Shown here piece after piece: positions 21,001 to 63,436 of a stretch of 64,000 bases of DNA (its first letter is position 1; each line of letters starts with the position of its first letter). A program made the position numbers and the translations under genes. The notes below the pieces were generated by a model, which saw nothing but the letters and a program-made list of their open reading frames with translations, was not told where the DNA came from and made no database searches. Source of the stretch: an alpha proteobacterium BAL199 (GTDB lineage: Bacteria > Pseudomonadota > Alphaproteobacteria > Thalassobaculales > Thalassobaculaceae); assembly GCA_000171835.1 (NCBI GenBank), contig ABHC01000013.1, positions 104,340-168,339 on the forward strand, given 5' to 3'.

Positions 21001-24000
21001 CGGGGACGCGGCCCGGTCGGTGCTGGTGCTCAACATGCATCACAGCATCGGTGACGGCGCGTCGGTCCCGATCCTGATGCGGGAACTGTCGGCGTTCTAT
21101 GCCTCCGCAGGCGCCACCACCACCGGCGACGGAATCTCGCCGCTCGCGATCCAGTACCGCGACTATGTCGCCTGGTTCGAGACGTGGCTGAAAACGCCGA
21201 CGGCCGAGGAGGATCGGGCCTATTGGGTGGCTCGGCTGTCGGGGATGGGCGATTCGCTGGACCTGCCGACGGATCGGCCGCGCGGACTCGGCACCAGCGG
21301 ACGCGGCGGGCAGATCGCCCGGGAGTTCGGGTCGGCCGGCCGCGGGCTGTTGGCGCTCGCCGTCGAAGCGCGCACGACGCCGCTGGCGGTCCTGATCGCC
21401 TTGGTACGGGCGGTGCTGCATCGCTACACCGGCGCGACCGACATCACCCTCGGCACGGTGGTATCGGGGCGCGACGAGCCCGGGCTCGAGGACCAGATCG
21501 GCTTCTTCGTGAACACGCTGGCGCTGCGCGATCCGATCGACGGCGCGGACCGGTTCGCCGACGTGGTCGCCCGATCCGCCGGCACCCTCGGCGAGGCGCT
21601 GGCCCACGCCACCTATCCGTTCGAGCGGATCGTCGACGCGCTCGCCATCGGCCGGGAGCCGGGACGCACTCCGCTGTTCGACGTCCTGGTGACGATGGAG
21701 GAGGAGCTGCCCCGGCCGGTGTTCGGATCGGCGTCGGTCAGCCGGCTCGGCGACCTGGCCGTCAGCCGCCATTTCGACCTGACGTTCTTCTTCCGCGCGA
21801 CGGATGACGGGCTGGCGCTGGTCGTCGAGTACGACGGCGACCTGTTCGATGCCTGGCGCATCGCCCAACTCTGCGACCATCTGGAAACCTTCGCCGGCAA
21901 CGCGGTGGCCGCGCCGGAGCGCCCGATCCTCGATCTCGATATCCTGCGGCCCCAAGAACGCGATCGGCTGATCCGCGGGTTCAACCAGACCGCCACCGAC
22001 TATCCCCGCGACGCCAGCATCACCGAGCTGTTCCGCGCGCAGGCGGCCCTGTCGCCCGACGCCCCGGCCGTGCGCGAGGCCGGCGGCAACGCGCTCACCT
22101 ACGGGATGCTGGAGCGGCGCTCGAACCGGGTGGCCCACCGGCTGGTCGACGAGGCGGGCGTGGCGCCGGGCGATCTGGTCGGCCTGATGGCGACGCGGTC
22201 CTGCGACCTGATCGTCGCCCAGCTCGCGATCCTCAAGGCGGGGGCGGCCTTCGTGCCGATCGACCCGGACTACCCCCGGGGCCGGATCGACGCGATGCTC
22301 ACAGCGGTGGAGATCCGCTGTCTGATCGTCCAGGACGATGCCCCGATCGCGGTCCCCGATCGCTGCCGGCGGGTCCCGCTCTCCGCCCTCGATGGCGAGG
22401 CGGCCGAGGGACCGGACCGGCACCCGTCGGCCGAGGATCTGGCCTATGTGATGTTCACCTCCGGGTCGACCGGCCAGCCGAAGCCGGTGGCGGTGCCGCA
22501 TCGGGCGGTGGTCCGGCTGGTGCGCGACACCAACTTCGTGGCGCTGGGCGGCGACGACCGACTGTTGCTGACCGGCGCGCTGTCGTTCGACGCCACCACG
22601 TTCGAGATCTGGGGCATGCTGTTGAACGGGGGGACCCTGGTCCTCGCCGACTCCCGCCTGATCCTGGACGCCCGCGACCTCGGCCGGCTGTTGGCGGAGG
22701 AGCGGATCACCACCCTGTGGCTCACCAGCAGCCTGTTCAACCACATGGTCGACCAGGGGGCGGACCTGTTCGCGCCGCTGCGCACCCTGCTGATCGGCGG
22801 CGAGCGGCTGTCGCCGCCCCACGTGGCGGCGGTGCGCCGCCGGCTGCCGGCCTTGCGCCTGCTGAACGGCTACGGGCCGACCGAGAACACCACCTTCTCC
22901 CTGGTGCACCCGATCGACGCGGTCGAGGACGGGCGGGACATCCCGATCGGCCGCCCCATCGCCAACAGCCGGGCCTATATCCTCGGCCCCGGCGACCGTC
23001 TGGCACCGGTCGGCGTGGTCGGCGAGATCGTGGTCGGCGGCGACGGCCTTGCCCGGGGCTATCTCGGCCAGGACGCGCTGACGGCCGAGCGCTTTGTCGA
23101 TCATCCGGAGCTGGACGGCGAACGGGTCTATCGGACCGGCGATTTCGGGTGCTGGCTGCCCGACGGCAGCATCGCCTATCTCGGCCGGCGCGACCGCCAG
23201 ATCAAGATCCGCGGCGTGCGGATCGAAATCGGCGAGGTGGAAGCGGCGTTGCGCGCGCAAGCAGGGGTCGAGCGCGCCGCCGTCACCACGCGGGAGCGGG
23301 CCGGCGTCCCCGAACTCGTCGCCTATGTGACCGGCGATCTGGCGATGGACACCGACGCGGTCCGCCGGGATCTGCACACCCTCCTGCCGAAAGCGATGGT
23401 GCCCGCGCATGTCCTGAAGATCGACAGCCTGCCGCTCGACGGAAACGGCAAGCTGGACTACGCCGCTCTTCCCACCCCCACACCGGCCACCCCCACACCG
23501 GCCACCCCCACACCGGCCACCCCCACACCGGCCACCCCCACACCGGCCACCCCCACACCGGCCACCCCCACACCGGCCACCCCCACACCGGCCACCCCCA
23601 CACCGGCCACCCCCACCCCAACCACCGCATCCGAGTCAACCGCATCCCCCGACCGGGCCGCCAGCCGAGCCGCCAGCCGAACACCTGGCAATCCGCTTGA
23701 GACCGCGCTGATCGCCCTGTGGCGCGAGGTGCTGGAGCGCGACGCCGTCACGGTGGACGACAACTTCTTCGACCTGGGCGGCCATAGCCTGTCGGCGATC
23801 CGGTTGGCGCAGCGGATCCAGGAGACCCTCGGCATGTCCGTCGCCGTGCGCGACCTGTTCGCGATGCCGACCATCGCCGGGCTGGCCGCGCACCTGCTCA
23901 CCACGATGATGCGAGAGCGTCTGGGAACTCCCGCCGACCAACCACCAACCCACCCGGACCAGATCCACCCGCTGCCGCCCGCCGAAGACTACCCGGCGAC

Positions 24001-27000
24001 CGCGAACCAGCGCCGGCTGTGGTTCCTGCACCGCCTGGACGCGGGCCTGACCGCCTACAACATCGTCGGCGCATGGCGGCTTGACGGCGCGGTCGACACC
24101 GACGCCCTGCACGGCGCCCTTTCCCGGCTGGTCGCCCGTCACGAGGCGCTGCGCACGGTGTTCTCCGGGATCGACGGAGAGCCGCGCCAGCGGGTCCTGG
24201 ACACGGCCCCTCCACCGCTCTCGCTCGAAACCGTTGCAAGCGATGCCGAGGTCGAGGCGGCCCGCGACGCCGAGCTTGGCCATGTGTTCGATTTCGGCGC
24301 GCCGCTGCTGCGGGTCCGGCTGCTGCGGTGGACCGAAACGGCGTCGGTGCTGCTGGTGAACTGCCACCACCTGATCGCCGATGGCTGGTCGATGCGGGTC
24401 CTGCTGGATGAGTTGGCCGACGCTTACCGGACCCTGCGCCGGGGCGAGCTTCTTCGGGAAGGCCCGGCCCCGATCCAGTACAAGGACGCCGCCGCCTGGG
24501 CCGCCGCGCGCCAACGGGGCGGCGAGGGTCAAGCCGATCTGGACTACTGGCGGGAAACCCTGTCCGGCGATCTGGCAGCGCTGGAACTGCCGACCGATTT
24601 CCCCCGTCCGGCGCTCAAGAGCTATCGCGGCGCGGCGGTGCGGATCGGGGTCGACGCGGCGACTACAGCCGATATCCGAGCTCTATCGGAATCAAAAAAT
24701 ACAAGTTTATTCTGCATTCTATCGTCTTTAGTTAATGTTTTACTTTACCGATATACCGGACAGTGCGACATTCGCGTGGGCACACCGGTGGCGGGGCGTG
24801 GGCATCCGGGCCTGGATCGGGCCGTCGGGTTCTTCGCCGACACCGTCGTGTTGCGCAATCACCTCGACGCCGACGACGCCTTCAACACCCTGCTCGACCG
24901 GATGACGACCACGCTCGCAGACGCGCTGGCGCATCAGTCGACACCGTTCGAGCACGTGGTCGCCGCCGTCGGCGCCGACCGGGATCCGGCGCGATCGCCG
25001 TTCTTCGACGTCATGGTCACCCTGGCGGAGGCGGAGCGGCCGCTTGTCCTGGATGGACTGCGGGCCGTCGCAATGCCCCTGCCCGAGATCACGACACAGT
25101 TCGATCTGACCTTCCGGTTCCAGGACCTTGGCGAGACCCTGGCGCTGGAACTGTCCTACAATACCGACCTGTTCAGCGACGCCCGCATCACCCGGATGGC
25201 CAACCATCTGAAGACGCTGATACGCGCGGCGGCGACCGACGGGACCCAATCCATCGCCCATCTGCCCTTGATGGCGGCGGCGGAGGCCGAGCAGGTCACC
25301 CGGGACTTCGCGTTCGACCGGGCCGCGGTCGATTGCTCCCCCAGCCTGGCGGCCTTGTTCGAGGCCCAGGCCGACCGCACCCCGTCGCGGCCGGCGGTGG
25401 TCGGCGACGACGGTAGTGTCGACTACCGGGCGCTGGACCATGCGGCCAACGGCTGGGCGGCGGCTCTGCTGGACCACGGTCTGCGGCCCGAAGAGCCGGT
25501 CGGGCTGGCGTTGCCCAGCGGATCGGTTGCGCTGATCGCGGCGATGCTCGGCATCCTGAAAGCGGGCGGCGCCTATGTGCCGCTCGACCCGAGACACCCC
25601 GCCGACCGGCTGCGCGCCATGATCGCCGATGCCGGCTGCCGGCTGGTGCTCACGGCCGAGACCCGGGATGCGTCGGGGCTTGCAGACTCCACCTTGATCC
25701 GCGCGCCCATCACCCCACGGGCCGACCGCCCGGCCCGGATCGACGGGGGCGACCGGCTCGCCTATATCCTGTTCACCTCCGGATCGACCGGCCGTCCGAA
25801 AGGCGTGATGGTCGAGCAACGGGCGGTGGTGAACCTGATCCACGGCCTGAACCGGGCGATCTACGACCCCCTGGCAACCACCGGACCGTTGCAGGTCGCC
25901 CAATTCGCCTCCGTGGTGTTCGACGCGTCGGTTCAGCAGATCTTTCCGGCCCTGCTGGCCGGCCACACCCTGCACCCGGTCGACGGAGCCCTGCGCCGTG
26001 ACGCGCCCGCCCTGCTGCGCTGGTTCCGCGCGCGCGGCATCAACGTCGCCGACGGCACGCCCACGCTCCTCGACATGCTGCTGGAGGCCGGTCTCGATCG
26101 CACACCGCTTCCGGATCTGCGCCACCTGATCCTGGGCGGTGAGCCGCTGTCGTCGGCAGCGCTCCGACGGCTGCGCGAGAACCCGTCGCTGGCGGGTCTC
26201 GCCGTCACCAACGCCTATGGACCGACCGAGACCACCGTCGATGCCACCTTGTTCGAGCTGCGCGGCGACGCTCCGCTCCCGGCGGTGATCCCGATCGGCA
26301 CCCCGCTGCCCAATGTCGAGGCGCTGATCCTGGACGCCAACGGCGAGCCGGTCCCGATCGGCGTGGCCGGGGAGCTGCATATCGGCGGCGCCGGTCTGGC
26401 GCGCGGATACGTGGCCGCCTCCCCAGCGGACAACGCCCGCTTCATCCCCCATCCCCACCGCGACGGCGAACGGCTGTACCGCACCGGAGATACGGCGCGG
26501 TGGTTGGAGGACGGCGCCATCGAGTTCCTTGGCCGGCGCGACGGGCAGATCAAGATACGCGGCCACCGGATCGAGGTCGGCGACGTGGAAGCCGCCCTGA
26601 AGCGTGCGCCGGGTATCCGTCACTGCGCGGTGGGTGTTCAACCCGGAGGACCTCGCCCCGCGCTGACCGCGTGGATCGTCGCGGACCGGGAGATCCCGAC
26701 GGCCGATCTGCGGCGCCATCTGGCCGGCCACCTGCCGGACGCGATGATCCCGGCGCGTTTCCAGGTCCTGCCGGCCCTCCCCCTGACCCCCAGCGGCAAG
26801 ATCGACCGAAAAGCCCTGGCCGCCATGCCCCTGGCCGCCATGCCCGTGACCACCATGCCCCCGGCCCGGCAGGACGGCGCGCCCGAGGTGCCGGAGAGCG
26901 CGCTTGAGGCCGGCATCGCGAAAATCTGGGAGGAGGTGCTGGGCCGGAGCGGGATCGGCCGCACCCTGAATTTCTTCGAGATCGGCGGCGACAGTGTGGG

Positions 27001-30000
27001 CGTGCTGCGGGTGCTGAGCCGGCTTGAGCACCGCCTGGGGATCGATGTTCCGGTCGACACCTTCTACCGGGCGCCGACCATCGCCGATCTGGCGGCCGCC
27101 GGGGCGGCGACCTCGATTGTGACGGCGCATCTCCAAACGGCGCATCCCCAAACGGCGGCGGCGACGGAAACCCTGGCCCCGTGTTCGGCGCTGACGCCCG
27201 CCCAGCACCGGTTGTGGGTGATCGCCGAGATGGATCCGGACAACGGCGGTTATGCGATGCCGGCCGCGTTCCAACTGGACGGCATGCTTGATGTGGCGGC
27301 CCTGCGGCGGGCGCTCGCGGTCCTGATCGAGCGCCACGAGCCGCTGCGCACCGTCTTCCCCATGATCGAGGGCGAGCCGCGCCAGAAAGTTCTTCCCCCC
27401 GCGCCGCTGACGCTGGATCCCGAGCTGGTGGCGGACCTGGACGCGGCGCGGGCGGCCATGGTCGCCGAGATCGCCCGGCCGTTCGACCTGGCGCACGGGC
27501 CGCTGCTGCGGTGCCGGCTGTTCCGCCTGTCGGAGCGGCGGCATCTGCTGCTGGTCTGCCTGCACCACATCATCGGCGACGGGCAGTCGCTAGCCGTCAT
27601 GGCCGGCGAACTCGGCCACGCGTACGACGCGCTCACCGCCGGTCGCGAACCGGCCCTGACACCGCTGCCGCTGACCTACCGCGCGGCGGCATCGGCCATC
27701 GCAGCCCGTCGTCAGGACCCGCGCGCCAAGGCCGATCGGGCGTATTGGCTGGACCGGTTCGCCGACCCGGTACCGCCCCTCGACCTGCCGACCGATTTCC
27801 CCCGATCGGCCGAAACCGGTTACGACGGCGGCGTCCATGTGGTGCCGGTCGACGCCGATGTGGCGGCCGGTCTTCGGGAGATGGCGCATCGATCCGGCGG
27901 GACCCTGTTCGCCGTGGTCCTCGCCCTGGTCGCCCGTCTGCTCCAGCGGGTGAGCGGGGCACGCGACCTGGTGATCGGCATCCCGGTCGCGGGGCGTTTC
28001 AACCCGGATTTCGAGCCGCTGGTCGGCCTGTTCGCCGAAACCTGTCCGGTGCGGATCACCGGCGACCCTGACGAGGATTTCGAGGCCCTGCTGACCCGCG
28101 TCGGTGCGACGGTGCGGGGGGCGATCGGCCACGACCGGTTCTCGTTCGACCAGTTGGTGGAAGACCTGGACGTTCAATCGCAGGCGGGCCGGTCGGCGCT
28201 TTACGATGTGATGGTCGCCGGCCAGGTCGGTGAGGCGGTCCCGCTCAGCCTGTCGGGCCTCACGGTCGACGCCGTTCCGCTCGGCCCCGCCGGCAGCCAG
28301 GTCGATCTGACCGTCAACGTGCTCGACCACGGGGGCGGGCTGGAGCTGTCGATCGTCTACCGTCGGCGCCTTTTCCGGGCGGAGCGGATCGCCGCATTCG
28401 CCGATGACCTGATCGCGCTGACCCGCGCGGTGGGGAGCTTGGATCGCGGGACAGCCAGCGTCGAGTCCCGCCTGCTCGCCCTGTGGCGGGAGGTTCTGGG
28501 TCGCGACGGGTTCGGCATCGACGACACGTTCCTCAGCGTCGGTGGTCACAGCCTGAAGGCGGCACGGCTGGTCCGGCGGATCTGGAGCGAGTTCGGGGCG
28601 AGCGTGAAGCTGCGCGACGTGTTCGCCCATCCGACCGTGCGATCCCTGGCGGCGCTGATCGAGGGGACCGAACCGGTGCCCTCGACCGCTGAGGCGCCCC
28701 CCGAGACGAGATCCCTCGGCGAGGCCGTGGCTCCCGCATCGGCGGCGCAGACACGGCTCTGGGTGCTGGCACAGATGGCGCCCGACCCGCGGGTCTACGC
28801 CATGGTGACGGCCCTGGAGCTGACCGGCCCGCTGAACGTCGCCGCCCTGGACCGGGCGTTCCAGGCGCTGGTGGCCCGTCATGAGGCGCTGCGGACCGTG
28901 TTCGAAACCGACGGCGACGGCGTCCTACGGCAACGCATCCAGCCCTCCGACGCCTGCGGCTTCCGCCTGGAGGTGGTGGACGGCGCGGCCGAAGGCCCGG
29001 ACGTGCCCGACTTCAACTTGGCCACCGGCCCCCTGTTCCAGGTGCGCCTGGAGCGGCGGGCGGCGGATCGCCATCGCCTGCGCATCGCCCAGCATCACAC
29101 GATCGGCGACGGCTGGTCCTGGACAGTGCTGGCGCGCGATCTGTCGGTGCTGTATCGCGCGGCCCTGGACAAGAGCGAGCCGGACCTCCCGGCGCTGGCG
29201 ATGCAGTATCGCCATGTCGAGGTGCAACGGTCCCGATGGCTCGACGGTCCGGGGGGAGCGGCGGCACGGCGGTTCTGGCTGGAGACCCTTTCCGGCGACA
29301 TCCCGCGCGTCAACCTGCCCGCGGACTTCCCCCGCCCGAAGCTCCAGAGCTTCGACGGCGCGCTGCATGCCTTCACCCTGCCGCCCCGAACCGCCGAGCG
29401 GCTGAAGGCCTTTGCCGAGGACCGGGGGGCGACGCTGTTCATGGGACTGCTGGCCGCCGTGAAGGCCCTGATCCATCGCTACACCGGGCTTGAGGACGTG
29501 GTGGTCGCCACCCCGGTCGCCGGCCGGGACGAGGCCGCGCTCGACGACCAGGTCGGGCTGTACATGAACACGCTCGCCCTGCGGACCCGCTTCAGCGCCG
29601 AGCGCGGCTTCGCGGCTTTGCTGGACGCCCTCCGCGACGGTGCCGCCGACGCTTTCGACCATCAGGGATACCCGTTCGACCGGCTTGTGGAAGATCTCGA
29701 CCTGCCCCGCGATCTCAGCCGCAACCCGGTGTTCGATGTGCTGGTCGCCCTGCAGAACCACGCGCCGGCCGAAGTCGATCTGGCCAGGGTCACCGCCCGC
29801 GCCGAGCCGGATGCGGGCGGGATCGCCAAGGTCGATCTCAGCTTCTATTTCACCGAGTCCGAGACCGGTATCGGTGCCTGGGTCGAGTACAACACCGGCC
29901 TGTTGCGCCCGGAGCGCATCCGCCGGCTGGAAGGCCATTTCCACACCCTGCTGGACAGCGCCCTCGCCGACCCCGAAGCCGCCCTCGGCCAGCTCGACAT

Positions 30001-33000
30001 CCTGACCACCGAGGAGGCTGGGGCGGAGCGGCGCTGGACCACTGCCGCGGACATCCCCGGACCGACCACCGTCGTCGATCTGTTTGAACGGCAAGCCGCC
30101 GCCAAGCCGAATGCCGTGGCGGTGCGCTGCCAGGGACGCCACGTCACCTATCGCACCTTAGACCGCTGGGCCGATCGGATCGCGGCCCGACTGCGTGCGC
30201 GCGCCGACCTGGCGCCCGGCGAGCGGGTCGCGGTCGACCTGCCCCGATCGGAAGCCTTGATCGCGGCGATGTTCGGAATCTGGAAGGCCGGACTGGTCCA
30301 TGTCCCGATCGCTCCGGGCGACCCGGCGGAGCGCAAGGCGTTCCTGATCGCCGACGCCGGATGCAAGGCGGTGATCGGCGGCGACGCGGACAGCATCGTG
30401 CCCCGCATCGATCCGACGAACGACCGCTCCAGGCCCACCGCTCGCGGTGCGGAATGCTCACCCGGCGACGTGGCCTACGTGTTCTACACCTCCGGGTCGA
30501 CCGGCAAGCCCAAGGGCGTGATGATCGAGCACCGCAACCTGGCTGCCTTCGCCCGGATTCTGCACGGGGCTTTCGGGATGCGGGACGGCGACGCGGTGTT
30601 CGCCCTGACCACCGCCACCTTCGACATTTCGATGCTGGAGCTGATCTGCCCGCTGACCCAGGGCTTGCGGGTGACCGTGGCCGACGATGCGACCGTAGCG
30701 GACCCGGCCCTCACCCTCGCCGATATCCGGGACAGCGGGGTGACGGTTCTGCAAGTCACGCCGTCCCGGCTCGCCCTGCTGCTCGCCCAGGATGGCGGGC
30801 TGGGCGCGGTCCGGTTGCTGTTGGTCGGCGGCGAGGCGCTCCCGGCGTACCTGGCCGCCTCCCTCCGCGCTCTGCATGGCCCGGACGGAAAACCGATCGC
30901 GGCGTTCAACGTCTACGGCCCGACCGAAACCACGATCTGGTCCACCGCGGAGGAGATCGGCGACGCGCCCCCCGGCATCGGCTGGGCCCTGCCCGGCGAG
31001 GTGGTGCTGATCCTCTCGCTCGCCGGTCGCCCGCAACCGGTCGGCGTGCCGGGGGAGATAGCGATCGCCGGCGCCGGGGTCGGGCGCGGCTATCTGGCGC
31101 GCGCGGATCTGACGGCGGAGCGGTTCACGGCGGACCCGACTCAGCCGGAGCGCCGGATGTACCGAACCGGCGACCTCGGCCTCCGGCGCGCGGATGGCGG
31201 GATCGAGTTTCTGGGCCGGGTCGACGATCAGGTGAAGCTGCGCGGATTCAGGATCGAGCCGGGCGAGATCGAGGCTGCGCTGACCGGCCACCCCTCGGTG
31301 CATCAGGCCAAGGTCGTCGTCCGCGACATCGCCGGCGCGCCGGAGCTGGTCGCCTATGTGGTGGCGCCGACATTGGACCTTCCGGGCCCCGGCGAGGCGG
31401 ACCTGCGCGCCCGGCTGCACGAAACCCTGCCGCCCCATATGGTGCCCATGGTGATCGTCGCCCTGGACGCCTTGCCGCTGCTACCGTCGGGCAAGATCGA
31501 CCGCAAGGCGTTGCCGAACCCCGAGGTCGCGCCGCCCGCGTCAGCGTCGGCGGCGGCCTTGGAGGGACCGGCGGACACGCTGGAGTCCGGTGTCCTGGCC
31601 CTGTGGCGAACGGTGCTGGCGCGTCCCCATGCCGGGCCGGATGACGATTTCTTCGACGGCGGCGGCCATAGCCTGCGCGCGGCCCAGCTCGCCAACCGGG
31701 TGCGCGAGACGTTCGGCGTCGCGTTCGGCCTGCGCGACGTGTTCCTGTTGCCGACGGCGCGTCGGATGGTGCGGGAGATCGCGCGCCGACGAACCCGGGA
31801 CCTGCCGCCGTTGGCGGCGGTGGCGACTGACGGCGACTACCCCCTGTCCCACGCCCAGCGCCGGCTGTTCGCCCTCGACCGCCTGGACCCGGGGGGCTGC
31901 GCCTACCTGATCGCCGGCGCCTTCCGGATTGCCGGGCCGCTCGATCGGAGCGCCCTGGAGCGGGCGATGGCGTGGCTCGTCGCCCGGCACGAGGCGCTAC
32001 GGACAAGCTTCAGGCTGATCGACGGCGACCCGCGCCAGGTCGTCGAGGCGGCACCGGCATTCACCCTGGGATACAGCGATCTTTCCAACGCCAAGGACCC
32101 CGAGGCGGACGCCGCGGCGATCGTCGGGACCGAGGCCCGGACGCCGATCCGCTCGGACGCCGCCCCGCTGTTTCGCGCGCACCTGCTGCGGGTGGCGCGG
32201 GATCGGCACATCCTCGCCTTCACGCTCCACCACCTGATCGCCGACGGCTGGTCCCTGGGCGTCCTGCTGGAGGATCTGGAGCACGCCTATGAGGCTTTTG
32301 CCAGCGACCATGCGCCGACGCGCCCCGCCCTGGCCCTGCACTACAAGGACTACGCGGCCTGGGAGCGGGTGCTTGCCACGACCGCCGCGCGGGAGCGCAG
32401 CCGCACCTACTGGCACACCCGCCTGGCCGGCCCCCTGCCGGTCCTGACCCTGCCCATGGCCAACGATCGGCCGGCCCGGCGCAGCGACCGGGGCGGCCAG
32501 GTGCCGTTCGCCATTACCTCCGAGCTCGGACGCGCCTTGTCGGAAAAGGGCCGCAAGCAGGGTGCGACCCTGTTCATGATGCTGCTGGCCGCGTCGGCCT
32601 CGTTGTTCCACCGACTGACCGGCGCGCGCGACATGATCCTCGGGTCGGTCACCGGCAACCGCGACCACTCGGATCTGGAGACCATGGTCGGCTGTTTCGT
32701 CAATCCGCTGCCGCTGCGCCTGGCGGTGTCGCCGGACGACACCCTCTCCACCGTGCTGGAGGGCGTGCGGACCGCTTCGCTGGAGGCGCTGGAGCACGGG
32801 ATCTACCCGTTCGACCAGTTGGTGCGCGAACTGGGCGCGGGCCGCGACGCCAGCCGGTCGCCGTTGTTCGATATCGGCCTCACCTGGAATGCCCTGCCCC
32901 ACATGGAACGGGATCGGTTCGCCGGGTTGGCCTTGAGCCCGTTCGGCGACGGCGCGCAGGCGGCGAAATACGATCTGCTGATTGTCGCCGGGCCGGACGG

Positions 33001-33199
33001 TGACGGCATCGCCGGGGTGATCGAATACAGCACGGATCTGTTCCAGGCGGGCGATATCGAGGTTCTGGCTCGCCAGATCACCAGGATCCTGGAACAAGTC
33101 GCCGACGCCGACCCGAGTATCGGCGCCCTTGACCTTGGAACGTCGCCGCAGGGCGATGCGCCCGCCATTACACCGCTGTCGATTGATCTGAACTTTTAG
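9029..33199 (+). CDS. Giant hybrid PKS-NRPS (8056 aa): KS-AT-cMT-ACP-AMT | C-(decayed A)-PCP | C-A-PCP | C-A-PCP | C-A-PCP | C-PCP (no A) | C-A-PCP | C
   Basis: KS DAACASSL/HGTGT. AT GQGSQYRGMG/GHSVGE/AFHS. SAM-MT LEIGAGTGGTS. ACP LGLDSLL. Class-III aminotransferase domain with PLP-lysine YGKMIGGG. Seven C domains with HHxxxDG variants at ~15430, 17875, 21040, 24370, 27570, 29095 and 32230. Four intact A domains with (Y/F)TSGSTG(Q/R/K)PK(G/P), NxYGPTE and (N/S)GK(V/I/L)D motifs. Six PCPs with GG(D/H)S. The 19-nt overlap with the upstream gene was seen directly. Confidence 0.9.
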   Translation: MGQVSVTPPQDQQPDIHPSPTDEVAELEAALERSLRVINHLEAALEQRAGDAGTESHQPVAIVGMSCRFPGGANDPAAFWDLLAGGREARAPMAADRWTGPGAPPLGHFLDRVPYGVDDRVFRLSPEEIRGLDPQQRLLLELAFEAFEDAGLPQGQLEGSRTGVFLGLEKADFIRAGLYSGDPERITPYTATGIAGSAAAGRISYLFDLRGPCLSLDAACASSLVAVDQACASLRRGDCTMALAGAVSLMLAPEPFTALTRLGALSPEGRCKTFSADADGYARGEGGAILVLKPLAQAQADGDRIHGVILGSAVRHGGRSNGLTAPNMGSQEEVIRAALDDARIGPDAVDYLEAHGTGTPLGDPIEMAAVEAVFAASRLEAGSPLAIGSVKTNIGHLETAAGVAGIIKVLLCLRHGMLPPHLHFENPSEHIDWPSLPVTVPTEATAWPSSSPSRRRIAGVSAFGFAGTVAHVVLAGAPDGTDICEPATADTTALPDRCWHLVTVSARSEAALAANLDALAAHVSPDDGLGDDGLGDIAHTANTGRTAFEYRAAAVANAASARPATLPATLRGPDLMKGRSGQADAGQIAFAFTGQGSQYRGMGRDLYATSPVFRDALDRCATLLEPELDRPLIDLLYGPAPDPEVIDRTDYAQPALFSVGYALSALWRSWGIHPAVVMGHSVGEITAAQIAGVFSLEDAIRLIAARGRLVQSLTPAGAMAAVFANADTVADRLKDLDGGVVIAARNAPRNTVIAGTPDAVAHAVEHLRQDGIDARALSVSRAFHSPLLDPAVAPFRDVLESLTYNAPTIPLVTNRTGRLATAKITTAEITTADIMTPDAWCRHLLDPVLFEDGVRAVAEAGIRTVIEIGPAPVLSGLARQVDGSDTAPIWMPSLIAASEGWQQMLSTLGQLYVRGVDVDWPGVDRGRVRRRVDLPTYRFQRNHAEPPAPLPVARSVGALARTTPEGPVSEGPVSEGPAFDSVSRGFQAVTTLGRGLLCHAMERLGLFDRLEAAVAPTVDDLRSDLGIDPSYARLFDELLAILARHGVLALAEGRVVATDIRRHTSPADSIPPADSATVVRDHPDLAAMVRLLEVCLDAYPDVLRDTRKAMEVLFPGGSMALVEAVYQSGDIAGYFNRLVADAVRQAVTEIGGTGGAGILEIGAGTGGTSRTVLAALAERETAALAYHYTDISAGFVRQAEIHLGARYPFTRFQTLDIERDIAAQGCREGGYDVVLASNVLHATHDMAHTLAQAARLVRPGGRLIINEVTRSHEFIGMTFGLTPGWWLYQDAEVRQAGSPVLSLASWRRMLAEAGFATVDTHGLDGDDPDDPVQAVIVAYRDGGSAFAAPQDLDIGGHGGAGHRGALEGRLVALVQRISGITVSDGDTATNLFALGLDSLLLMQIKQGMQEEFGVEVSMGQFYNELSTIGDLVDLLARQVSPAPTAAPGPATGSVAQTVPHVPQPAPATAGSRDAILRVVEQQLELMRQQLALLGGDPGAVALPAMPATVPTAPAPPLAAPHPATFASAPAASAPGASAPAASVQGPIDGALSPAQQRLIDDLVRRYTAKTARSKDAMARARPVLADWIATVGFRPELKEMIYPIVSVASQGSHVTDLDGNDYVDLAMGFGVEFFGHRPPFVVDAVRERLDRGFELATQSDLAEETARMVAELTGVERVTFSNTGTEAVMTAFRLARTVTGRKRIVHFKGAFHGFYDGVMAYGGRTGSTPMVPGILQNQIDDVLVLEYGSDEALRVIEAEADSLAGVLVEPVQSRNPDLQPRDFLHALRRITESHGVALIFDELITGFRVHPGGAQAHFGVTADIVTYGKMIGGGMPISVIAGKARFLDAIDGGDWRYGDGSRPAATMTFFGGTFCRHPLSMAAAHATLRFMADHGPALQERVNARTEALAGRLNALFGDRRIPFRVAWFASQFQIRQAMAGGGGETIQSLELAVFFFLLMERGIYTWERRVCFLSIAHDDGDLDRIVSAVADSLDAMLAAGFFGGRSAPPVALTPGQKDMAFRAAQGTAASTAYAEPLVLDLEGPLDIAALQGALDAVIARHDALRVVRIADDAAEIAPKISVAIRRTLDTSRDAGDWLSALCRQPFDLDAGPLIRAHLLELAPERFRFALVLHHLIADGWSAGVVLQELARIYSALAARAPLPELPAPVSFAAYQAWYADRLTRRRATVRGYWRRQLRDVPPLDLPADVLAPSRTSGRGQRLRREIAGDTTTAIRAAARAHHTSSFAILLGTWTALLFRLSGSRRITVGVASAGQSAMGKDTLVGQCSSLLPLIVEVDPALSWTALLERLTAALGELWDHQDVRPEDVIGDDPDLALPPLRASFNQDRDPGGCRFHGLSAALAPAEIGFVKHALALNAIESDGRMLLDFDYDTDLFDPATVSDWADGYRALLDALLLAPDAPIIADGPAPASGPAGRARTADSPPLGIGADAFDRHVEAWIGAAEIAAGDRLHISDAAASALGADGAAALRTAGATVLPAGAQRQPGDGDILLAREASGMPTSAKMLLVDDGTLLDITLADLLRTRPETRLFVVAQPTGLPVSLGVERVDAAREEWRRHGLRAPSPSLNVDVRDTDGRPVLSGVAGNLHLGPTSTGEAARRRSDGTIELLGPADAIVHHRSHPVRASTVAAILLAHPSVRDVALDPAAASFSVQAAIGDSGVDAQTLRRYLLRHLPVWSVPGRVVVVPQFPAPPETPAETTPEVRADGPQTAEIITLFRHVLGGVDVAADDDFFDLGGDSLAATRLVNQVRTVFGVDLAMRSVFEAPTPALLAARLGDAERSTLAPITAGRRPDRLPLSPAQRRLWFLEQFESTATAYVMTVAVRLNGPLDVSALERALNAVLARHESLRTRFPTTDDEPWQEILPAAAARLTLAPVDTTDAALLPTLAALQATDARFDLANDLPVRAILYRLSADRHVLVLRVHHIAGDEESLRPLAQDLRRAYSDASALTPLSLQVADVALWQRDQTYDDQEAFWVRELGDLPSALALPYDTPPGGAGRHRPAGQVPLRIGAALTRRLSDLAHEERASLFMALQAGLATLLHRYGAGDDIPIGAPSAGRSRRELEDLIGFFVNMIVLRCRLGGRPSFRDLLARVRGCNLAAYANQDAPFDRVVDRLRPLRDGEALALQVVLVLGQGDAGALDLPGIDSALLRIPERDAKFDLSVMLAPTEDGGLAGELVYDAHLFRPETAARLADHLVRILQAAVIAPDEPVARLAFLAPAERQPLVAERTETIRIDPDATVTGLLEAQAAATPEAVALVAADGRAMTYSALHRTAATVAGILRRRGIGRGDVIAVLCRRSPDMVVGILAALKAGATYLPLDPSYPPARLAFIVEDAAPALVLSQSELTEILPSDTEVLLLDTVPEACGSNATDAASPPATPDDAAYIIYTSGSTGQPKGAILPHRAVVNYLVWARDTYRPELGRGAPINTSIGFDATITSLFLPLIAGTAVYLIDEEDEIGALAACLSDHRDFSLVKLTPAHLDILRMTMAPEDLAGMARVLVIGGEALSAATVQAWRDHAPETRLFNEYGPTETTVGCIVHEVGPDTPTSGMVPIGRPIANTRIYLLDAEMQPVPVGVAGEVYIAGAGVADGYLRRPELTAERFLADPFGEPGARMYRSGDLARRDADGRMEYLGRADGQIKLRGHRIEPGEIEAALLAQPSVAQAAVILRKDAVGDAELAAYLVPAAGVEPRATAALQQALSERLPAVAVPSSYIWVDAVPLSPNGKVDRARLARVAVAPRQAAAPDDLPCALTERICAAFAAALEVPHVAPDANFFAIGGHSLLAARLIIRLRREVDDGLSLGDLFANPTAADLAGLLAGREQATPRPGLVPTPADADADADYPVSPGQRRLWALDRMEPGRAVYNMACAFLVDGDIGPARLRGALDALMRRHETLRTGFVAVGAEPRQRVHADCAVPLVVEDLSHWPDPLARAKAVADADARTPFDLATAPLWRVRLLALGGTGDAARSVLVLNMHHSIGDGASVPILMRELSAFYASAGATTTGDGISPLAIQYRDYVAWFETWLKTPTAEEDRAYWVARLSGMGDSLDLPTDRPRGLGTSGRGGQIAREFGSAGRGLLALAVEARTTPLAVLIALVRAVLHRYTGATDITLGTVVSGRDEPGLEDQIGFFVNTLALRDPIDGADRFADVVARSAGTLGEALAHATYPFERIVDALAIGREPGRTPLFDVLVTMEEELPRPVFGSASVSRLGDLAVSRHFDLTFFFRATDDGLALVVEYDGDLFDAWRIAQLCDHLETFAGNAVAAPERPILDLDILRPQERDRLIRGFNQTATDYPRDASITELFRAQAALSPDAPAVREAGGNALTYGMLERRSNRVAHRLVDEAGVAPGDLVGLMATRSCDLIVAQLAILKAGAAFVPIDPDYPRGRIDAMLTAVEIRCLIVQDDAPIAVPDRCRRVPLSALDGEAAEGPDRHPSAEDLAYVMFTSGSTGQPKPVAVPHRAVVRLVRDTNFVALGGDDRLLLTGALSFDATTFEIWGMLLNGGTLVLADSRLILDARDLGRLLAEERITTLWLTSSLFNHMVDQGADLFAPLRTLLIGGERLSPPHVAAVRRRLPALRLLNGYGPTENTTFSLVHPIDAVEDGRDIPIGRPIANSRAYILGPGDRLAPVGVVGEIVVGGDGLARGYLGQDALTAERFVDHPELDGERVYRTGDFGCWLPDGSIAYLGRRDRQIKIRGVRIEIGEVEAALRAQAGVERAAVTTRERAGVPELVAYVTGDLAMDTDAVRRDLHTLLPKAMVPAHVLKIDSLPLDGNGKLDYAALPTPTPATPTPATPTPATPTPATPTPATPTPATPTPATPTPATPTPATPTPTTASESTASPDRAASRAASRTPGNPLETALIALWREVLERDAVTVDDNFFDLGGHSLSAIRLAQRIQETLGMSVAVRDLFAMPTIAGLAAHLLTTMMRERLGTPADQPPTHPDQIHPLPPAEDYPATANQRRLWFLHRLDAGLTAYNIVGAWRLDGAVDTDALHGALSRLVARHEALRTVFSGIDGEPRQRVLDTAPPPLSLETVASDAEVEAARDAELGHVFDFGAPLLRVRLLRWTETASVLLVNCHHLIADGWSMRVLLDELADAYRTLRRGELLREGPAPIQYKDAAAWAAARQRGGEGQADLDYWRETLSGDLAALELPTDFPRPALKSYRGAAVRIGVDAATTADIRALSESKNTSLFCILSSLVNVLLYRYTGQCDIRVGTPVAGRGHPGLDRAVGFFADTVVLRNHLDADDAFNTLLDRMTTTLADALAHQSTPFEHVVAAVGADRDPARSPFFDVMVTLAEAERPLVLDGLRAVAMPLPEITTQFDLTFRFQDLGETLALELSYNTDLFSDARITRMANHLKTLIRAAATDGTQSIAHLPLMAAAEAEQVTRDFAFDRAAVDCSPSLAALFEAQADRTPSRPAVVGDDGSVDYRALDHAANGWAAALLDHGLRPEEPVGLALPSGSVALIAAMLGILKAGGAYVPLDPRHPADRLRAMIADAGCRLVLTAETRDASGLADSTLIRAPITPRADRPARIDGGDRLAYILFTSGSTGRPKGVMVEQRAVVNLIHGLNRAIYDPLATTGPLQVAQFASVVFDASVQQIFPALLAGHTLHPVDGALRRDAPALLRWFRARGINVADGTPTLLDMLLEAGLDRTPLPDLRHLILGGEPLSSAALRRLRENPSLAGLAVTNAYGPTETTVDATLFELRGDAPLPAVIPIGTPLPNVEALILDANGEPVPIGVAGELHIGGAGLARGYVAASPADNARFIPHPHRDGERLYRTGDTARWLEDGAIEFLGRRDGQIKIRGHRIEVGDVEAALKRAPGIRHCAVGVQPGGPRPALTAWIVADREIPTADLRRHLAGHLPDAMIPARFQVLPALPLTPSGKIDRKALAAMPLAAMPVTTMPPARQDGAPEVPESALEAGIAKIWEEVLGRSGIGRTLNFFEIGGDSVGVLRVLSRLEHRLGIDVPVDTFYRAPTIADLAAAGAATSIVTAHLQTAHPQTAAATETLAPCSALTPAQHRLWVIAEMDPDNGGYAMPAAFQLDGMLDVAALRRALAVLIERHEPLRTVFPMIEGEPRQKVLPPAPLTLDPELVADLDAARAAMVAEIARPFDLAHGPLLRCRLFRLSERRHLLLVCLHHIIGDGQSLAVMAGELGHAYDALTAGREPALTPLPLTYRAAASAIAARRQDPRAKADRAYWLDRFADPVPPLDLPTDFPRSAETGYDGGVHVVPVDADVAAGLREMAHRSGGTLFAVVLALVARLLQRVSGARDLVIGIPVAGRFNPDFEPLVGLFAETCPVRITGDPDEDFEALLTRVGATVRGAIGHDRFSFDQLVEDLDVQSQAGRSALYDVMVAGQVGEAVPLSLSGLTVDAVPLGPAGSQVDLTVNVLDHGGGLELSIVYRRRLFRAERIAAFADDLIALTRAVGSLDRGTASVESRLLALWREVLGRDGFGIDDTFLSVGGHSLKAARLVRRIWSEFGASVKLRDVFAHPTVRSLAALIEGTEPVPSTAEAPPETRSLGEAVAPASAAQTRLWVLAQMAPDPRVYAMVTALELTGPLNVAALDRAFQALVARHEALRTVFETDGDGVLRQRIQPSDACGFRLEVVDGAAEGPDVPDFNLATGPLFQVRLERRAADRHRLRIAQHHTIGDGWSWTVLARDLSVLYRAALDKSEPDLPALAMQYRHVEVQRSRWLDGPGGAAARRFWLETLSGDIPRVNLPADFPRPKLQSFDGALHAFTLPPRTAERLKAFAEDRGATLFMGLLAAVKALIHRYTGLEDVVVATPVAGRDEAALDDQVGLYMNTLALRTRFSAERGFAALLDALRDGAADAFDHQGYPFDRLVEDLDLPRDLSRNPVFDVLVALQNHAPAEVDLARVTARAEPDAGGIAKVDLSFYFTESETGIGAWVEYNTGLLRPERIRRLEGHFHTLLDSALADPEAALGQLDILTTEEAGAERRWTTAADIPGPTTVVDLFERQAAAKPNAVAVRCQGRHVTYRTLDRWADRIAARLRARADLAPGERVAVDLPRSEALIAAMFGIWKAGLVHVPIAPGDPAERKAFLIADAGCKAVIGGDADSIVPRIDPTNDRSRPTARGAECSPGDVAYVFYTSGSTGKPKGVMIEHRNLAAFARILHGAFGMRDGDAVFALTTATFDISMLELICPLTQGLRVTVADDATVADPALTLADIRDSGVTVLQVTPSRLALLLAQDGGLGAVRLLLVGGEALPAYLAASLRALHGPDGKPIAAFNVYGPTETTIWSTAEEIGDAPPGIGWALPGEVVLILSLAGRPQPVGVPGEIAIAGAGVGRGYLARADLTAERFTADPTQPERRMYRTGDLGLRRADGGIEFLGRVDDQVKLRGFRIEPGEIEAALTGHPSVHQAKVVVRDIAGAPELVAYVVAPTLDLPGPGEADLRARLHETLPPHMVPMVIVALDALPLLPSGKIDRKALPNPEVAPPASASAAALEGPADTLESGVLALWRTVLARPHAGPDDDFFDGGGHSLRAAQLANRVRETFGVAFGLRDVFLLPTARRMVREIARRRTRDLPPLAAVATDGDYPLSHAQRRLFALDRLDPGGCAYLIAGAFRIAGPLDRSALERAMAWLVARHEALRTSFRLIDGDPRQVVEAAPAFTLGYSDLSNAKDPEADAAAIVGTEARTPIRSDAAPLFRAHLLRVARDRHILAFTLHHLIADGWSLGVLLEDLEHAYEAFASDHAPTRPALALHYKDYAAWERVLATTAARERSRTYWHTRLAGPLPVLTLPMANDRPARRSDRGGQVPFAITSELGRALSEKGRKQGATLFMMLLAASASLFHRLTGARDMILGSVTGNRDHSDLETMVGCFVNPLPLRLAVSPDDTLSTVLEGVRTASLEALEHGIYPFDQLVRELGAGRDASRSPLFDIGLTWNALPHMERDRFAGLALSPFGDGAQAAKYDLLIVAGPDGDGIAGVIEYSTDLFQAGDIEVLARQITRILEQVADADPSIGALDLGTSPQGDAPAITPLSIDLNF
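13690..15000 (+). other. PLP-dependent class III aminotransferase (AMT) domain embedded in the assembly line; converts β-keto to β-amino
   Basis: Resembles glutamate-1-semialdehyde aminotransferase-like domains (VTFSNTGTEAVMTAFRLAR; YGKMIGGGMPISV). The position after KS-AT-cMT-ACP matches MycA/McyE-type β-amino acid modules. Confidence 0.8.
16330..17230 (+). other. Decayed adenylation-domain remnant (~300 aa, core motifs lost) between C1 and PCP1
   Basis: Recognisable A7-A9 relics (GRPVLSGVAGNLHLG; DGTIELLGPADAIVHHRSHPVRASTVAAILLAHPSV; HLPVWSVP). There is no SGSTGxPKG, no YGPTE and no A10 lysine. Confidence 0.55.
23476..23625 (+). repeat. Perfect 15-bp tandem repeat (ccccacaccggccac) x9 plus 1 degenerate copy, encoding a (PTPAT)n linker between A2 and PCP3
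   Basis: Seen directly; in frame with the giant ORF. Confidence 0.9.
24671..24760 (+). other. ~90-bp AT-rich (about 33% GC) in-frame patch inside C-domain 4, made of rare codons
   Basis: GC was counted by hand against ~70% background. The frame is preserved and encodes the conserved C-domain segment SESKNTSLFCILSSLVNVLLYRYTGQ. Confidence 0.7.
27180..28660 (+). other. C-PCP module lacking any adenylation domain (C5 HHIIGDGQS, then PCP GGHSLK)
   Basis: The C-domain end (~28420) abuts the PCP (~28450) with no room for an A domain. Confidence 0.65.
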
Positions 33200-33211
33200 C
33201 CAGAAGCCGCA

Positions 33212-33950
33212 ATGAGCAGACTGACGACCTCCCCCGCGCGCGCCGACCTTGCCCGCTATACCGGACACGGGTTCGATGCCCACCGCGCGTTCTGGCAGGA
33301 CCGGACCGCCGCCTGCGTGGACCCGGTGGATCTCGGGGCTGATGGAACCTCCCCGGCAACCCACGCGCATCCGTTCTCCGCGGAGGCCGCCGGGACCCTA
33401 GCGCGGATTTCCGGCGGCCAGGAGCTCGGCCGGCTCGTGGTGGTCACGGCGGCAGTCGCGCGGGTGTTGGCCGCGTGGGGCGGGGGACAGTCGATCCTGG
33501 TCGACACACCACCGCTCCCGACCTCCGCCCATGCCGGCGAACCGGTGGCGATGGTGCTGCCGCTGATGCTCACCGGCACCGTGCGTGATCTGCTGACCGC
33601 GACCCGCGCGGTGATCGCCGATGCCTATGGTCATCAGGACTTCCCGATCCGCCGCTTGTCCGACCCCGCCTTGCCCGAAGCCCGGATGATGATCGCCAGC
33701 CCGGCTCTCCACGACGTGCCGGCGGACAACGAAGCGCGGGACCTGACGCTCACGCTGGACCTGACCCTCACGCTGGAGCAGACCGGCCTGCGGCTGCGCC
33801 ACCGGCTGGCCCCCTGGCGCGCCGCCGCCTTCGCCGCCCAGATCGACCGGGCCGTGGCCGGTTTCGCGGAGACCGACCGCCCGCTCGCCGACATCGACCT
33901 GCTGTCGGCCGGGGAACAGGCCACGGCCCTGGCGTTCGGACGGGGCCCGG
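33212..33950 (+). other. N-truncated condensation-domain half (C*), directly following the complete terminal C domain of the preceding protein
   Basis: Alignment by eye to C-domain C-terminal subdomain motifs; the N-terminal lobe carrying the catalytic histidine motif is missing. Confidence 0.5.
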
Positions 33951-50463: not shown

Positions 50464-52100
50464 GGGTCCTGGACTTCATCAAGGAGAGCGGTCTTTCCAA
50501 CCGCTACCAGTTCATGCTCGTCGCCGTGATGGCCAGCGTGACGAATTCGGCCGTGCTGATCGTCGTGAACATGGCGGCCCGCTCGGGATACGGATCGGGC
50601 CTCAATCTGTATCTGTTCTTCATCTTCCTGTTCGCCGTCGGAACCTACGCCTTCGCCCAGCGTCGGGCGTTGGCGATGGCGACATCGGATATCGAGACCA
50701 TGGTGGCCGGCGTGCGCCGGCGGTTCCTGAAACGCATCCGGGCATGCGAGTTGCTGAGCATCGAGGGGATCGGCCAGGCGCGTATCCTCGCGGCCATGAC
50801 CGCCGACGCCCAGGCCCTGTCGCAGTCGCTCAGCCAGGCGGTGATGGGGCTCCAGGCGGTGCTGGTGACGCTGATCACCGGGGCGTACATCTGCTATCTG
50901 TCCCGGCCCGCCTTTTTCCTGTGGCTGCTGTCGGTCGTGTTGTCCGCCATCCTGATCTCGCGGCAATGGGCGCGGTCGCAAAGCCTGCTGGCGGAGGCCG
51001 CCGCCCGGGACGGCGAGTTCCAGGATCTGGCCGCCTCCCTGCTGCACGGCTTCAAGGAAGTGAAACTCAGCACCCGCCGGGCGCGGGCCCTGTTCGGCGA
51101 GATCGGCACCGTGATCGAGGACGTCCGCAATGTGCGCATCGACGCCCAGCGCGGCATGGACCAGAGCTACGTGTTCGGACAGGTGCTGTTCTTCCTGCTG
51201 GTCGGCTCCATGATCTTCCTGCTGCCGGCCCTGGGCAATGTGGAGCACGACACGCTGAGCCAGGTGACGACGGCGGTGCTGTTCGTTCTGGGACCGGTGA
51301 CGATGATCATCGGCTGCGTGCCCGCGCTGTCCCTGGCGGAGGCCGCCGCCACCAAGCTTCACGGACTGGAAGCCGCCCTGGATGCCCAGATCTCGGCCGA
51401 AGAGGCGGCACGCACGGACAGCCCGTCCCCGCTGACGCCGCAGCCGGCGTTCGAGAGCCTGGAATTCCGGGACGTGACATTCCGCTACCCCGAGGGCCCG
51501 GACAGCAACGGTTTCCGTCTCGGACCGCTGAGCTTCGCCGTCACCGGCGGGGAGACCCTGTTCATCACCGGTGGCAATGGCGCGGGCAAGTCCACCTTCC
51601 TGCGGTTGCTGACCGGACTTTACCAGCCGGTATCGGGTCAGATCCTTCTGAACGGCAAGGAGATCGACGCGAGCAGCATACAGACCCTGCGGGAGACGAT
51701 CGCCGCGGTCTATTCGGACTACTTCCTGTTCAAGAAACTGTACGGGATCGCCGTCTCCCCCGACGACGCCGCCGACTGGCTCGACGAGATGGAGATCAGC
51801 GGCAAGACCACGATCACCGAGGACGGCTTCACCCAGACCCAGTTGTCGACCGGCCAGCGCAAGCGTCTGGCGCTGATCGCCTCGGTCCTGGAAAGCAAGC
51901 CGCTGCTGGTTCTGGACGAATGGGCCGCCGACCAGGATCCGCTTTTCCGCCGCAAGTTCTATGAGGTTATTTTGCCAGCGTTGAAGAAGCGCGGTATCAC
52001 CATCATCGCCGCGACCCACGATGATCGTTGGTTCCACTTGGCGGATCGTCAAATCCATCTGGCAGACGGGGCGATCCACAAACCAGGGAGTCCGGCGTGA
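50460..52100 (+). CDS. ABC transporter, fused TMD-NBD, cyclic-peptide exporter family (SyrD-like)
   Basis: 546 aa with six predicted TM helices then an NBD. Walker A GGNGAGKST, signature LSTGQRKRLAL, Walker B LLVLDEWAADQDP. The DEWAADQD form is typical of the cyclic-peptide transporter family. Confidence 0.8.
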   Translation: MRVLDFIKESGLSNRYQFMLVAVMASVTNSAVLIVVNMAARSGYGSGLNLYLFFIFLFAVGTYAFAQRRALAMATSDIETMVAGVRRRFLKRIRACELLSIEGIGQARILAAMTADAQALSQSLSQAVMGLQAVLVTLITGAYICYLSRPAFFLWLLSVVLSAILISRQWARSQSLLAEAAARDGEFQDLAASLLHGFKEVKLSTRRARALFGEIGTVIEDVRNVRIDAQRGMDQSYVFGQVLFFLLVGSMIFLLPALGNVEHDTLSQVTTAVLFVLGPVTMIIGCVPALSLAEAAATKLHGLEAALDAQISAEEAARTDSPSPLTPQPAFESLEFRDVTFRYPEGPDSNGFRLGPLSFAVTGGETLFITGGNGAGKSTFLRLLTGLYQPVSGQILLNGKEIDASSIQTLRETIAAVYSDYFLFKKLYGIAVSPDDAADWLDEMEISGKTTITEDGFTQTQLSTGQRKRLALIASVLESKPLLVLDEWAADQDPLFRRKFYEVILPALKKRGITIIAATHDDRWFHLADRQIHLADGAIHKPGSPA

Positions 52101-56316: not shown

Positions 56317-56330
56317 GTTCGGGATCTCCG

Positions 56331-63420: not shown

Positions 63421-63436
63421 TCTCTCGGTCGGCATA

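Follow-up and report, generated by a model that had tools for sequence, protein, structure and literature searches.

A conserved, probably glycine-bearing module without an adenylation domain in a lipopeptide synthetase of alpha proteobacterium BAL199

Elongation modules that lack an adenylation (A) domain of their own have been described in several peptide assembly lines. In the thalassospiramide synthetase Ttm of Tistrella mobilis, A1 and A5 are absent and no stand-alone A gene lies nearby, and heterologous expression showed that in-line A domains supply the orphan carriers, including a downstream A domain that loads an upstream carrier (bioRxiv 10.1101/560987). In the WS9326A pathway of Streptomyces calvus, Cal19 contains a functional elongating ‘A-less module’, composed of a condensation (C) domain and a peptidyl carrier protein (PCP, or T) domain and located between complete modules, which is loaded by two discrete trans-acting A domains encoded in the cluster, Cal22 and Cal23; viomycin, syringomycin and yersiniabactin provide further precedents (PMC7539972). 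Moreover, the A-less modules 5 and 12 of the rhodamide lipopeptide synthetase match real residues of the product (PMC11586506), and complementation by an A domain of matching specificity from another module has been proposed for VioI/CmnI of viomycin/capreomycin, for bleomycin, for mannopeptimycin and for rhodamide (PMC11586506, PMC7539972). Here, we describe module 5, a C-T didomain (C5-T5) without an A domain, of a nonribosomal peptide synthetase (NRPS) encoded in a 64,000-nucleotide stretch of the genome of alpha proteobacterium BAL199 (contig ABHC01000013.1, positions 104,340 to 168,339), referred to as the window throughout. Module 5 falls within the well-known A-less modules of nonlinear NRPSs and calls for no new mechanism; what is added here is that this module appears to be ancient and selected, and that it probably bears glycine.

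Like Ttm, the BAL199 system is an alphaproteobacterial lipopeptide assembly line with two A-less NRPS modules and no stand-alone A gene nearby, whereas Ttm has a trans-AT polyketide synthase (PKS), pass-back chain extension and a different product, and the two clusters are unrelated. The BAL199 line starts instead with a fatty-acyl-AMP ligase (FAAL), PKS and aminotransferase, followed by ten NRPS modules, and its aminoacyl supply is inferred. The embedding of a C-PCP didomain between complete modules is shared with Cal19, but discrete A genes of the Cal22/Cal23 kind are absent from the BAL199 window and the examined flanks. With VioI/CmnI, bleomycin, mannopeptimycin and rhodamide, which belong to other pathways and taxa, it shares an A-less module for which a complementing A domain from another module is proposed; the BAL199 case adds a relative that keeps the A domain. 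A preliminary description of this DNA called the arrangement uncommon, a fair remark, although such modules are well documented (PMC7539972, bioRxiv 10.1101/560987, PMC11586506).

Module 5 lies within protein B, the 8056-residue product of the second synthetase gene, with the following elements around it (window coordinates).

26912-27112, + strand: T4, upstream carrier and chain donor for C5
27188-28429, + strand: C5, LCL-like condensation domain (Pfam PF00668, E 2.6e-86)
27563-27583, + strand: HHIIGDG motif of C5
28430-28468, + strand: C5-T5 linker of 13 residues, in place of the C-A linker, an A domain of ~480 amino acids (aa) and the A-T linker
28469-28660, + strand: T5, peptidyl carrier domain (Pfam PF00550, E 6.6e-16)
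28550-28552, + strand: phosphopantetheine serine codon in the GGHSL motif of T5, read directly from the sequence
28733-30019, + strand: C6, LCL-like condensation domain to which T5 passes the chain
30086-31495, + strand: A6, Gly-type adenylation domain, code DILQLGVIWK
39558-40952, + strand: A8, second Gly-type adenylation domain, code DILQLGVI-K

The architecture is that of an A-less (C-T) elongation module, with the condensation domain directly followed by a carrier and no A domain between them, as the preliminary description had seen. A Pfam scan of 27146-28738 matched Condensation at residues 15-428 and PP-binding at residues 442-505, with no other family and no A domain, and phmmer searches with the cluster's own domains gave the same order in protein B (C at 6055-6467, then T at 6496-6548). 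Aligned with the complete modules, module 5 lacks ~490 columns, from the C-A linker through the A-T linker, and the distances between recurring NRPS motifs in the gene likewise reveal an extra 1.5 kb devoid of A-domain motifs. Eight modules have an A domain of ~470-490 aa, which leaves two of the ten peptidyl carrier domains, those of modules 1 and 5, without one in cis; this count, too, agrees with the preliminary description, module 1 retaining only a decayed remnant (see below). Antisense open reading frames over the C5-T5 region have no Pfam matches, and the sense-frame G+C content at third codon positions is 0.87-0.89, like that of the neighbouring domains. The string ‘GSLDR’ in the BAL199 linker was considered as a deletion scar of the A10 motif GK(I/V)DR; it is absent from orthologous linkers and is probably a chance resemblance.

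Initial genome and metagenome scans with C5-T5 returned a best relative of 37% identity, and orthologs were reached instead through the products of neighbouring genes. Most of the hits in these scans that matched query positions 5-495 proved after domain mapping to be T-C rather than C-T, and the few true C-T or C-T-C proteins among them (P0001-P0003, P0009 and L006) are only 30-36% identical. Full-length relatives of protein C, the product of the next synthetase gene, were found at 52-59% identity in Acidisphaera sp. S103, in Rhodopila and Roseomonas metagenome-assembled genomes and in several metagenomes, with more distant ones at 47% and 43%. Relatives of the first synthetase, PKS A, comprise the same set plus Roseibium and Ruegeria. 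Named alphaproteobacterial genera with the cluster number at least three, and its genomic context differs among them. Domain order, read from the 10 kb upstream of the protein C orthologs, includes a C-T module without an A domain at the same position in L100 (Acidisphaera sp. S103), L101, L103/L104 and the distant L108, which is on the same contig as a Roseibium-like cluster, and Pfam agrees.

The position of module 5 is occupied by a complete C5-A5-T5 in one relative, L107 (contig k141_6070723 of ENA ERZ27256514), whose protein C is 47% identical. The C and T domains of this module are closest to C5 and T5, respectively, and the A domain between them is intact (Pfam AMP-binding, E 3e-77), with the Gly-like specificity code DILQIGSVYK. 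This A5 groups with Gly-type domains (55% identity to A6 of L107, 50% to its A8 and 48% to A8 of the window) and appears too diverged to be a recent duplicate. Furthermore, the A domain of module 6 carries the Gly code DILQLGVIWK in every member of the family, and in L107 it directly follows the A5 module. Codes were extracted by alignment to a GrsA-PheA segment, with a numbering that reproduces the published DAWTIAAICK code; the amino acids assigned to them (Gly, Gln-like, Asn, Val and Tyr) follow from comparison with published codes.

The distribution of A5 suggests two independent losses, in the clade of the window and in L108, from an ancestral Gly module 5 beside Gly module 6, because the deletion end-points differ and midpoint-rooted neighbour-joining trees of proteins C and D place L108 outermost, then L107, then the window with an Acetobacteraceae clade. 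The stretch from the end of C5 to GGHSL measures 60-64 residues in the window clade versus 91 in L108, which keeps a C-A-linker-like stretch and a ‘PGKIEP’ that resembles A10. We tentatively suggest a more specific scenario for these neighbours of the same specificity, in which the upstream A domain was deleted in two lineages and kept in a third, with A6 charging both T6 and T5.

In the reading that we favour, module 5 would be a working chain-elongation module that lost its own A domain through an in-frame deletion. C5 would join the lipopeptidyl chain on T4, with its Gln-like end (the A code of module 4 is DAQDIGAVDK), to an aminoacyl group on T5. One of the Gly-specific A domains in the line would supply this group as glycine, and C6 would then take the chain onward, with a Gly-Gly stretch as the outcome. 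The best candidate for the loader is A6, just downstream in the same polypeptide, with A8 as an alternative. We lean, with modest confidence, towards this reading as a whole, in-frame loss included, and T5 most likely carries glycine, with A6 most likely the loading domain. The sequences themselves show the module architecture, intact and conserved C5 and T5, and a Gly-type A5 in one relative; the glycine on T5 and the choice of loader are inferred. A loader within the assembly line is favoured because L107 has an intact Gly-type A5 beside Gly module 6. Of the two options raised in the preliminary description, trans-acting adenylation or module skipping, loading by an A domain other than the module's own is supported, while skipping is disfavoured because C5 and T5 are under the purifying selection seen in working domains, with intact catalytic residues, in orthologs diverged by 40-57%.

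Several points weigh against this reading. The search for a stand-alone A gene covered the window and upstream flanks, so an unlinked A or A-T protein is conceivable, though we think it unlikely. The linkers on either side of T5 are short, which raises the question of its reach in cis to the active site of A6. The same logic does not obviously explain module 1, whose sole adjacent A domain is the Asn-type A2. The glycine assignment relies on specificity codes, of which that of A5 in L107 (DILQIGSVYK) is no more than Gly-like. That A5 was lost, as opposed to regained, depends on midpoint rooting. Finally, a paper on the product of the BAL199 cluster, which would give the residue at position 5 and the peptide length, was not found in the literature.

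The foremost alternative, which we judge distinctly less probable, is that a discrete A or A-T protein, with its gene at some other genomic locus, acts in trans to load T5 and perhaps also T1. Precedents for such loaders are well established (WS9326A Cal22/Cal23, syringomycin SyrB1, ramoplanin/enduracidin; PMC7539972), a single dedicated loader could serve both modules that lack a cis A domain, and the part of BAL199 that was searched comprises the window and 4.7 kb upstream. The preliminary description had advised looking for a discrete A or A-T didomain; no stand-alone A or A-T gene is present in the 64-kb window or the 4.7 kb upstream of it in BAL199 (L070), nor within ~8-10 kb upstream of four related clusters (L105, L106, L109 and L110). 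Within the window and these flanks, module 5 is thus not accompanied by a discrete A or A-T gene of the WS9326A or syringomycin type. Moreover, a self-sufficient cluster is more plausible than an unlinked loader because the cluster occupies different genomic contexts in at least three named genera, is flanked by insertion sequence (IS) elements and has a G+C content of 70-72%; the relative with a Gly-type A5 beside Gly module 6 also offers a simpler source of the aminoacyl group.

It is improbable that module 5 is skipped or dead, with the chain passing directly from T4 to C6 and C5-T5 persisting as an evolutionary relic. The module does lack an A domain, and module 1 illustrates that domain decay is possible in protein B. 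Skipping is also a documented behaviour of NRPSs, reportedly including the myxochromide S synthetase. Nevertheless, the constraint on C5 and T5 equals that on the working C and T domains, in orthologs whose divergence reaches ~57%. Between the window and its orthologs, C5 is 52-57% identical, compared with 48-49% for C4, 51-53% for C6 and 53-56% for C7, and T5 is 55-61% identical, compared with 51-60% for T3, T4 and T6. In the comparison of L100 with L103, the ratio of nonsynonymous to synonymous substitution rates is 0.17 for C5 (0.15-0.17 for other C domains) and 0.07 for T5 (0.12-0.28 for other T domains). The catalytic HHII(G/C)DG motif and the serine of GG(H/Q)SL are kept in all orthologs, while the C5-T5 linker is free to vary, with 0-10% identity among them. 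By comparison, the decayed A1 remnant has 44% identity and 64 gap columns. Since C5 and T5 are as conserved as working domains and keep both the histidine motif and the serine, module 5 appears to be maintained by selection and not to be a decaying relic. Among near-identical metagenome copies there are 22 single-nucleotide polymorphisms in total, possibly low-coverage errors, which are too few for a selection test.

Less probable still is a non-canonical C5 (a dehydrating C_modAA domain, an epimerase, a dual E/C domain or a recruitment domain), with T5 acting as a shuttle and not as the acceptor. In AmbE, for example, a modifying C domain sits in a T-C-T arrangement, and the carrier motif of T4 is GGDSV rather than GGHSL, a variant more usual ahead of epimerisation (E) domains. 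The best solved relative of C5, however, is the PCP-C of TycC5-6 (2jgp, 229 bits), followed by the elongation C domains of DhbF, Txo2, Txo1, PvdL and LgrA, whereas others score lower (TycB1 (DCL) 125, CDA starter 114 and SrfA-C 86 bits) and C_modAA of AmbE (7r9x) reaches only 69 bits in a partial alignment. C5 is 33-39% identical to the cluster's other LCL-like C domains versus 20-22% to its two E domains, and the orthologous C domain of L107 sits in a normal C-A-T module. By homology, C5 is thus predicted to be an LCL-type condensation domain, which joins an L-donor to an L- or Gly-acceptor, and to fall outside the dehydrating or modifying AmbE-like C_modAA class.

Other features of C5-T5 are those of intact domains. 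C5 keeps 27 of 32 highly conserved positions, those shared by 80% or more of 106 reference C domains (reference mean 28.7, standard deviation 3.6; 24-31 in the cluster's other LCL-like C domains). With both the catalytic HHIIGDG (HHxxxDG) motif and the phosphopantetheine serine of GGHSL present, C5-T5 is predicted to be catalytically competent. An AlphaFold2 model of C5-T5 has a mean local confidence (pLDDT) of 92.9, a predicted template-modelling score (pTM) of 0.84 and a canonical C fold, and it superposes on PCP-C and C structures at ~2.7-3 Å, with CmnI among the closest folds. Reading the acceptor amino acid from the nearest C-domain neighbours was also tried and abandoned: the control failed, with the same neighbours returned for Asn, Val, Gln, Gly and Tyr modules.

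An artefact in which an A domain collapsed out of the assembly can be set aside. Repeats in NRPS genes do frequently fragment assemblies, and contigs are broken at 23.5-23.6 kb by a 15-nt tandem repeat not far away. However, window 23562-33200 is matched without gaps, at 99.83-100% identity and across the C5-T5 junction at 28.4 kb, by ten independent metagenome assemblies (L060-L069, with L069 starting at 26128) from three assemblers (SPAdes, MEGAHIT and JGI), and five diverged clusters have the same junction, which excludes the mis-assembly at 28420-28450 that the preliminary description had allowed for. Many public metagenome contigs encode protein C.

The tandem repeat is a separate feature. 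It is a perfect 15-nt unit, CCACCCCCACACCGG, present in ~10 copies at 23472-23621, and in protein B it encodes the (PTPAT)n of the A3-T3 linker; the start or break point of several metagenome contigs falls precisely on it, ~5 kb upstream of C5-T5. Its copy number probably varies, because protein B has 8026 aa in one assembly rather than the 8056 aa found here.

The second module without a working A domain is located at the NRPS start of protein B.

15062-17425, + strand: module 1, with C1 at 15062-16303, pseudo-A at ~16346-17230 and T1 at 17243-17425

The pseudo-A has ~300 aa and lacks A1-A7 and the A10 lysine; Pfam AMP-binding does not match it, and TIGR01733 matches with its last 50 profile positions only, at 20 bits against a cut-off of 317. 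The remnant persists in the orthologs L105, L109 and L110 (Roseibium marinum), in which it is harder still to recognise, and its 44% identity and 64 gap columns contrast with the 57-60% and 0-19 gap columns of C1, T1 and C2. Because it persists as a remnant in these three orthologs, the inactivation of A1 must be older than the family, the pseudo-A being ancient and common to all members examined, Roseibium-type clusters included.

The window proteins are, by exact-sequence match, EDP63589, EDP63590, EDP63595 and EDP63598 of alpha proteobacterium BAL199, a Baltic Sea isolate named Thalassobaculum sp. BAL199 in a 2025 paper (PMC12175539). The window has ~70% G+C, and its hybrid PKS/NRPS cluster, on the + strand, comprises a phosphopantetheinyl transferase gene and four synthetase genes together with a type II thioesterase gene.

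965-1696, + strand: type II thioesterase
~2484-9047, + strand: PKS ‘A’, FAAL-ACP-KS-AT-KR-ACP
9029-33199, + strand: gene ‘B’, 8056 aa, KS-AT-cMT-ACP-aminotransferase-C1-[A remnant]-T1-C2-A-T2-C3-A-T3-C4-A-T4-C5-T5-C6-A-T6-C7
33212-38137, + strand: gene ‘C’, A(N-MT)-T7-E
38148-49655, + strand: gene ‘D’, C-A-T8-C-A-T9-C-A-T10-E-TE

Pfam matches comprise AMP-binding, ketoacyl-synt, Acyl_transf_1, KR, Methyltransf_12, Aminotran_3, Condensation, PP-binding and Thioesterase. With AMP-ligase and ACP loading, KS-AT, a class-III aminotransferase, C-A-T modules and a thioesterase (TE), the cluster is a FAAL-PKS-aminotransferase-NRPS synthetase of the beta-amino lipopeptide kind. Synthetases of the iturin/mycosubtilin type combine a fatty-acyl-AMP ligase, PKS extension, an in-line class-III aminotransferase, an Asn/Gln/Tyr-rich NRPS and a terminal TE, and the BAL199 line resembles them in having FAAL, PKS and class-III aminotransferase ahead of Asn/Gln/Tyr-rich NRPS modules and a TE. 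Unlike the Bacillus iturin type, the alphaproteobacterial line adds a KR-containing PKS module and a C-methyltransferase, comprises ten NRPS modules, of which two are without a working A domain, and ends in E-TE; the likeness drawn here is one of domain logic.

Three further features of the line deserve mention. It terminates in T10-E-TE (47640-49655), where the last condensation-like domain is an epimerase (HHLAVDAVSW, EAHGRE, FNYLG), so that the C-terminal Tyr-like residue is probably epimerised just ahead of release or cyclisation. The code of A9 (42705-44141) is DVHTPTLVEK, with DVHS(T/V)GLVEK in relatives, and matches no code known to us, so that residue 9 of the predicted peptide is given as X. 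The N-terminus of protein C (33212-33900) contains ~230 aa like the C-terminal lobe of a condensation domain (YGHQDFPIRRL), without a Pfam match and despite a complete C7 at the end of protein B; this fragment occurs in L100-L104 and not in L107 or L108, and may be a remnant or an inter-protein docking element.

Downstream (3′) of the synthetase genes lie an ABC exporter, a Band_7/prohibitin protein, IS elements and a ShlB-type transporter. An MbtH-like gene was not found: the small open reading frames that separate gene D from the ABC transporter encode a putative secreted protein and a 55-aa membrane peptide. Genes for DUF697 (191-724), Band_7/prohibitin (52028-53494) and a ShlB-type POTRA protein (59518-61761) adjoin the cluster and recur in the ortholog L105 (3651-9113), and may be conserved accessory or export genes; in Thalassobaculum sp. 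OXR-137, an NRPS/PKS cluster likewise stands beside an ABC exporter and prohibitin (PMC12016528). The mobile DNA downstream comprises an IS21 element (istA/istB), a Mutator-family transposase and an rve integrase fragment (55561-57866 and 62046-63904). These IS, transposase and integrase elements, together with the G+C content of 70-72% versus 65.7% in BAL199 coding DNA (PMC3851785), suggest that the cluster was acquired horizontally. Megablast against plasmids gave short NRPS motif matches only, and the IS21 matches point merely to Alphaproteobacteria. Identical or near-identical BAL199 cluster DNA also recurs in dozens of public metagenome assemblies (ENA ERZ1283859-66, ERZ23486xxx and ERZ286689xx; JGI 33000770xx-787xx), which indicates that BAL199, or a strain very closely related to it, is widely sampled or in experimental use.

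Peptide prediction from NRPS gene clusters fails chiefly because of A-less modules. For module 5, the comparison of relatives replaces an ambiguous gap with a testable product predicted from the codes, beta-amino fatty acid-X-Asn-Val-Gln-Gly-Gly-N-Me-D-Tyr-Gly-X-D-Tyr, as the orphan lipopeptide of this cultured marine bacterium. Relatives with and without the A domain offer a natural pair in which to ask under what conditions one A domain can serve two carriers, and such a pair would be useful for engineering smaller synthetases. If the scenario of two deletions, with A6 charging both T5 and T6, is true, an A domain would become dispensable beside a neighbour of the same specificity, and NRPS assembly lines could repeatedly have shrunk by way of backward intramolecular loading.

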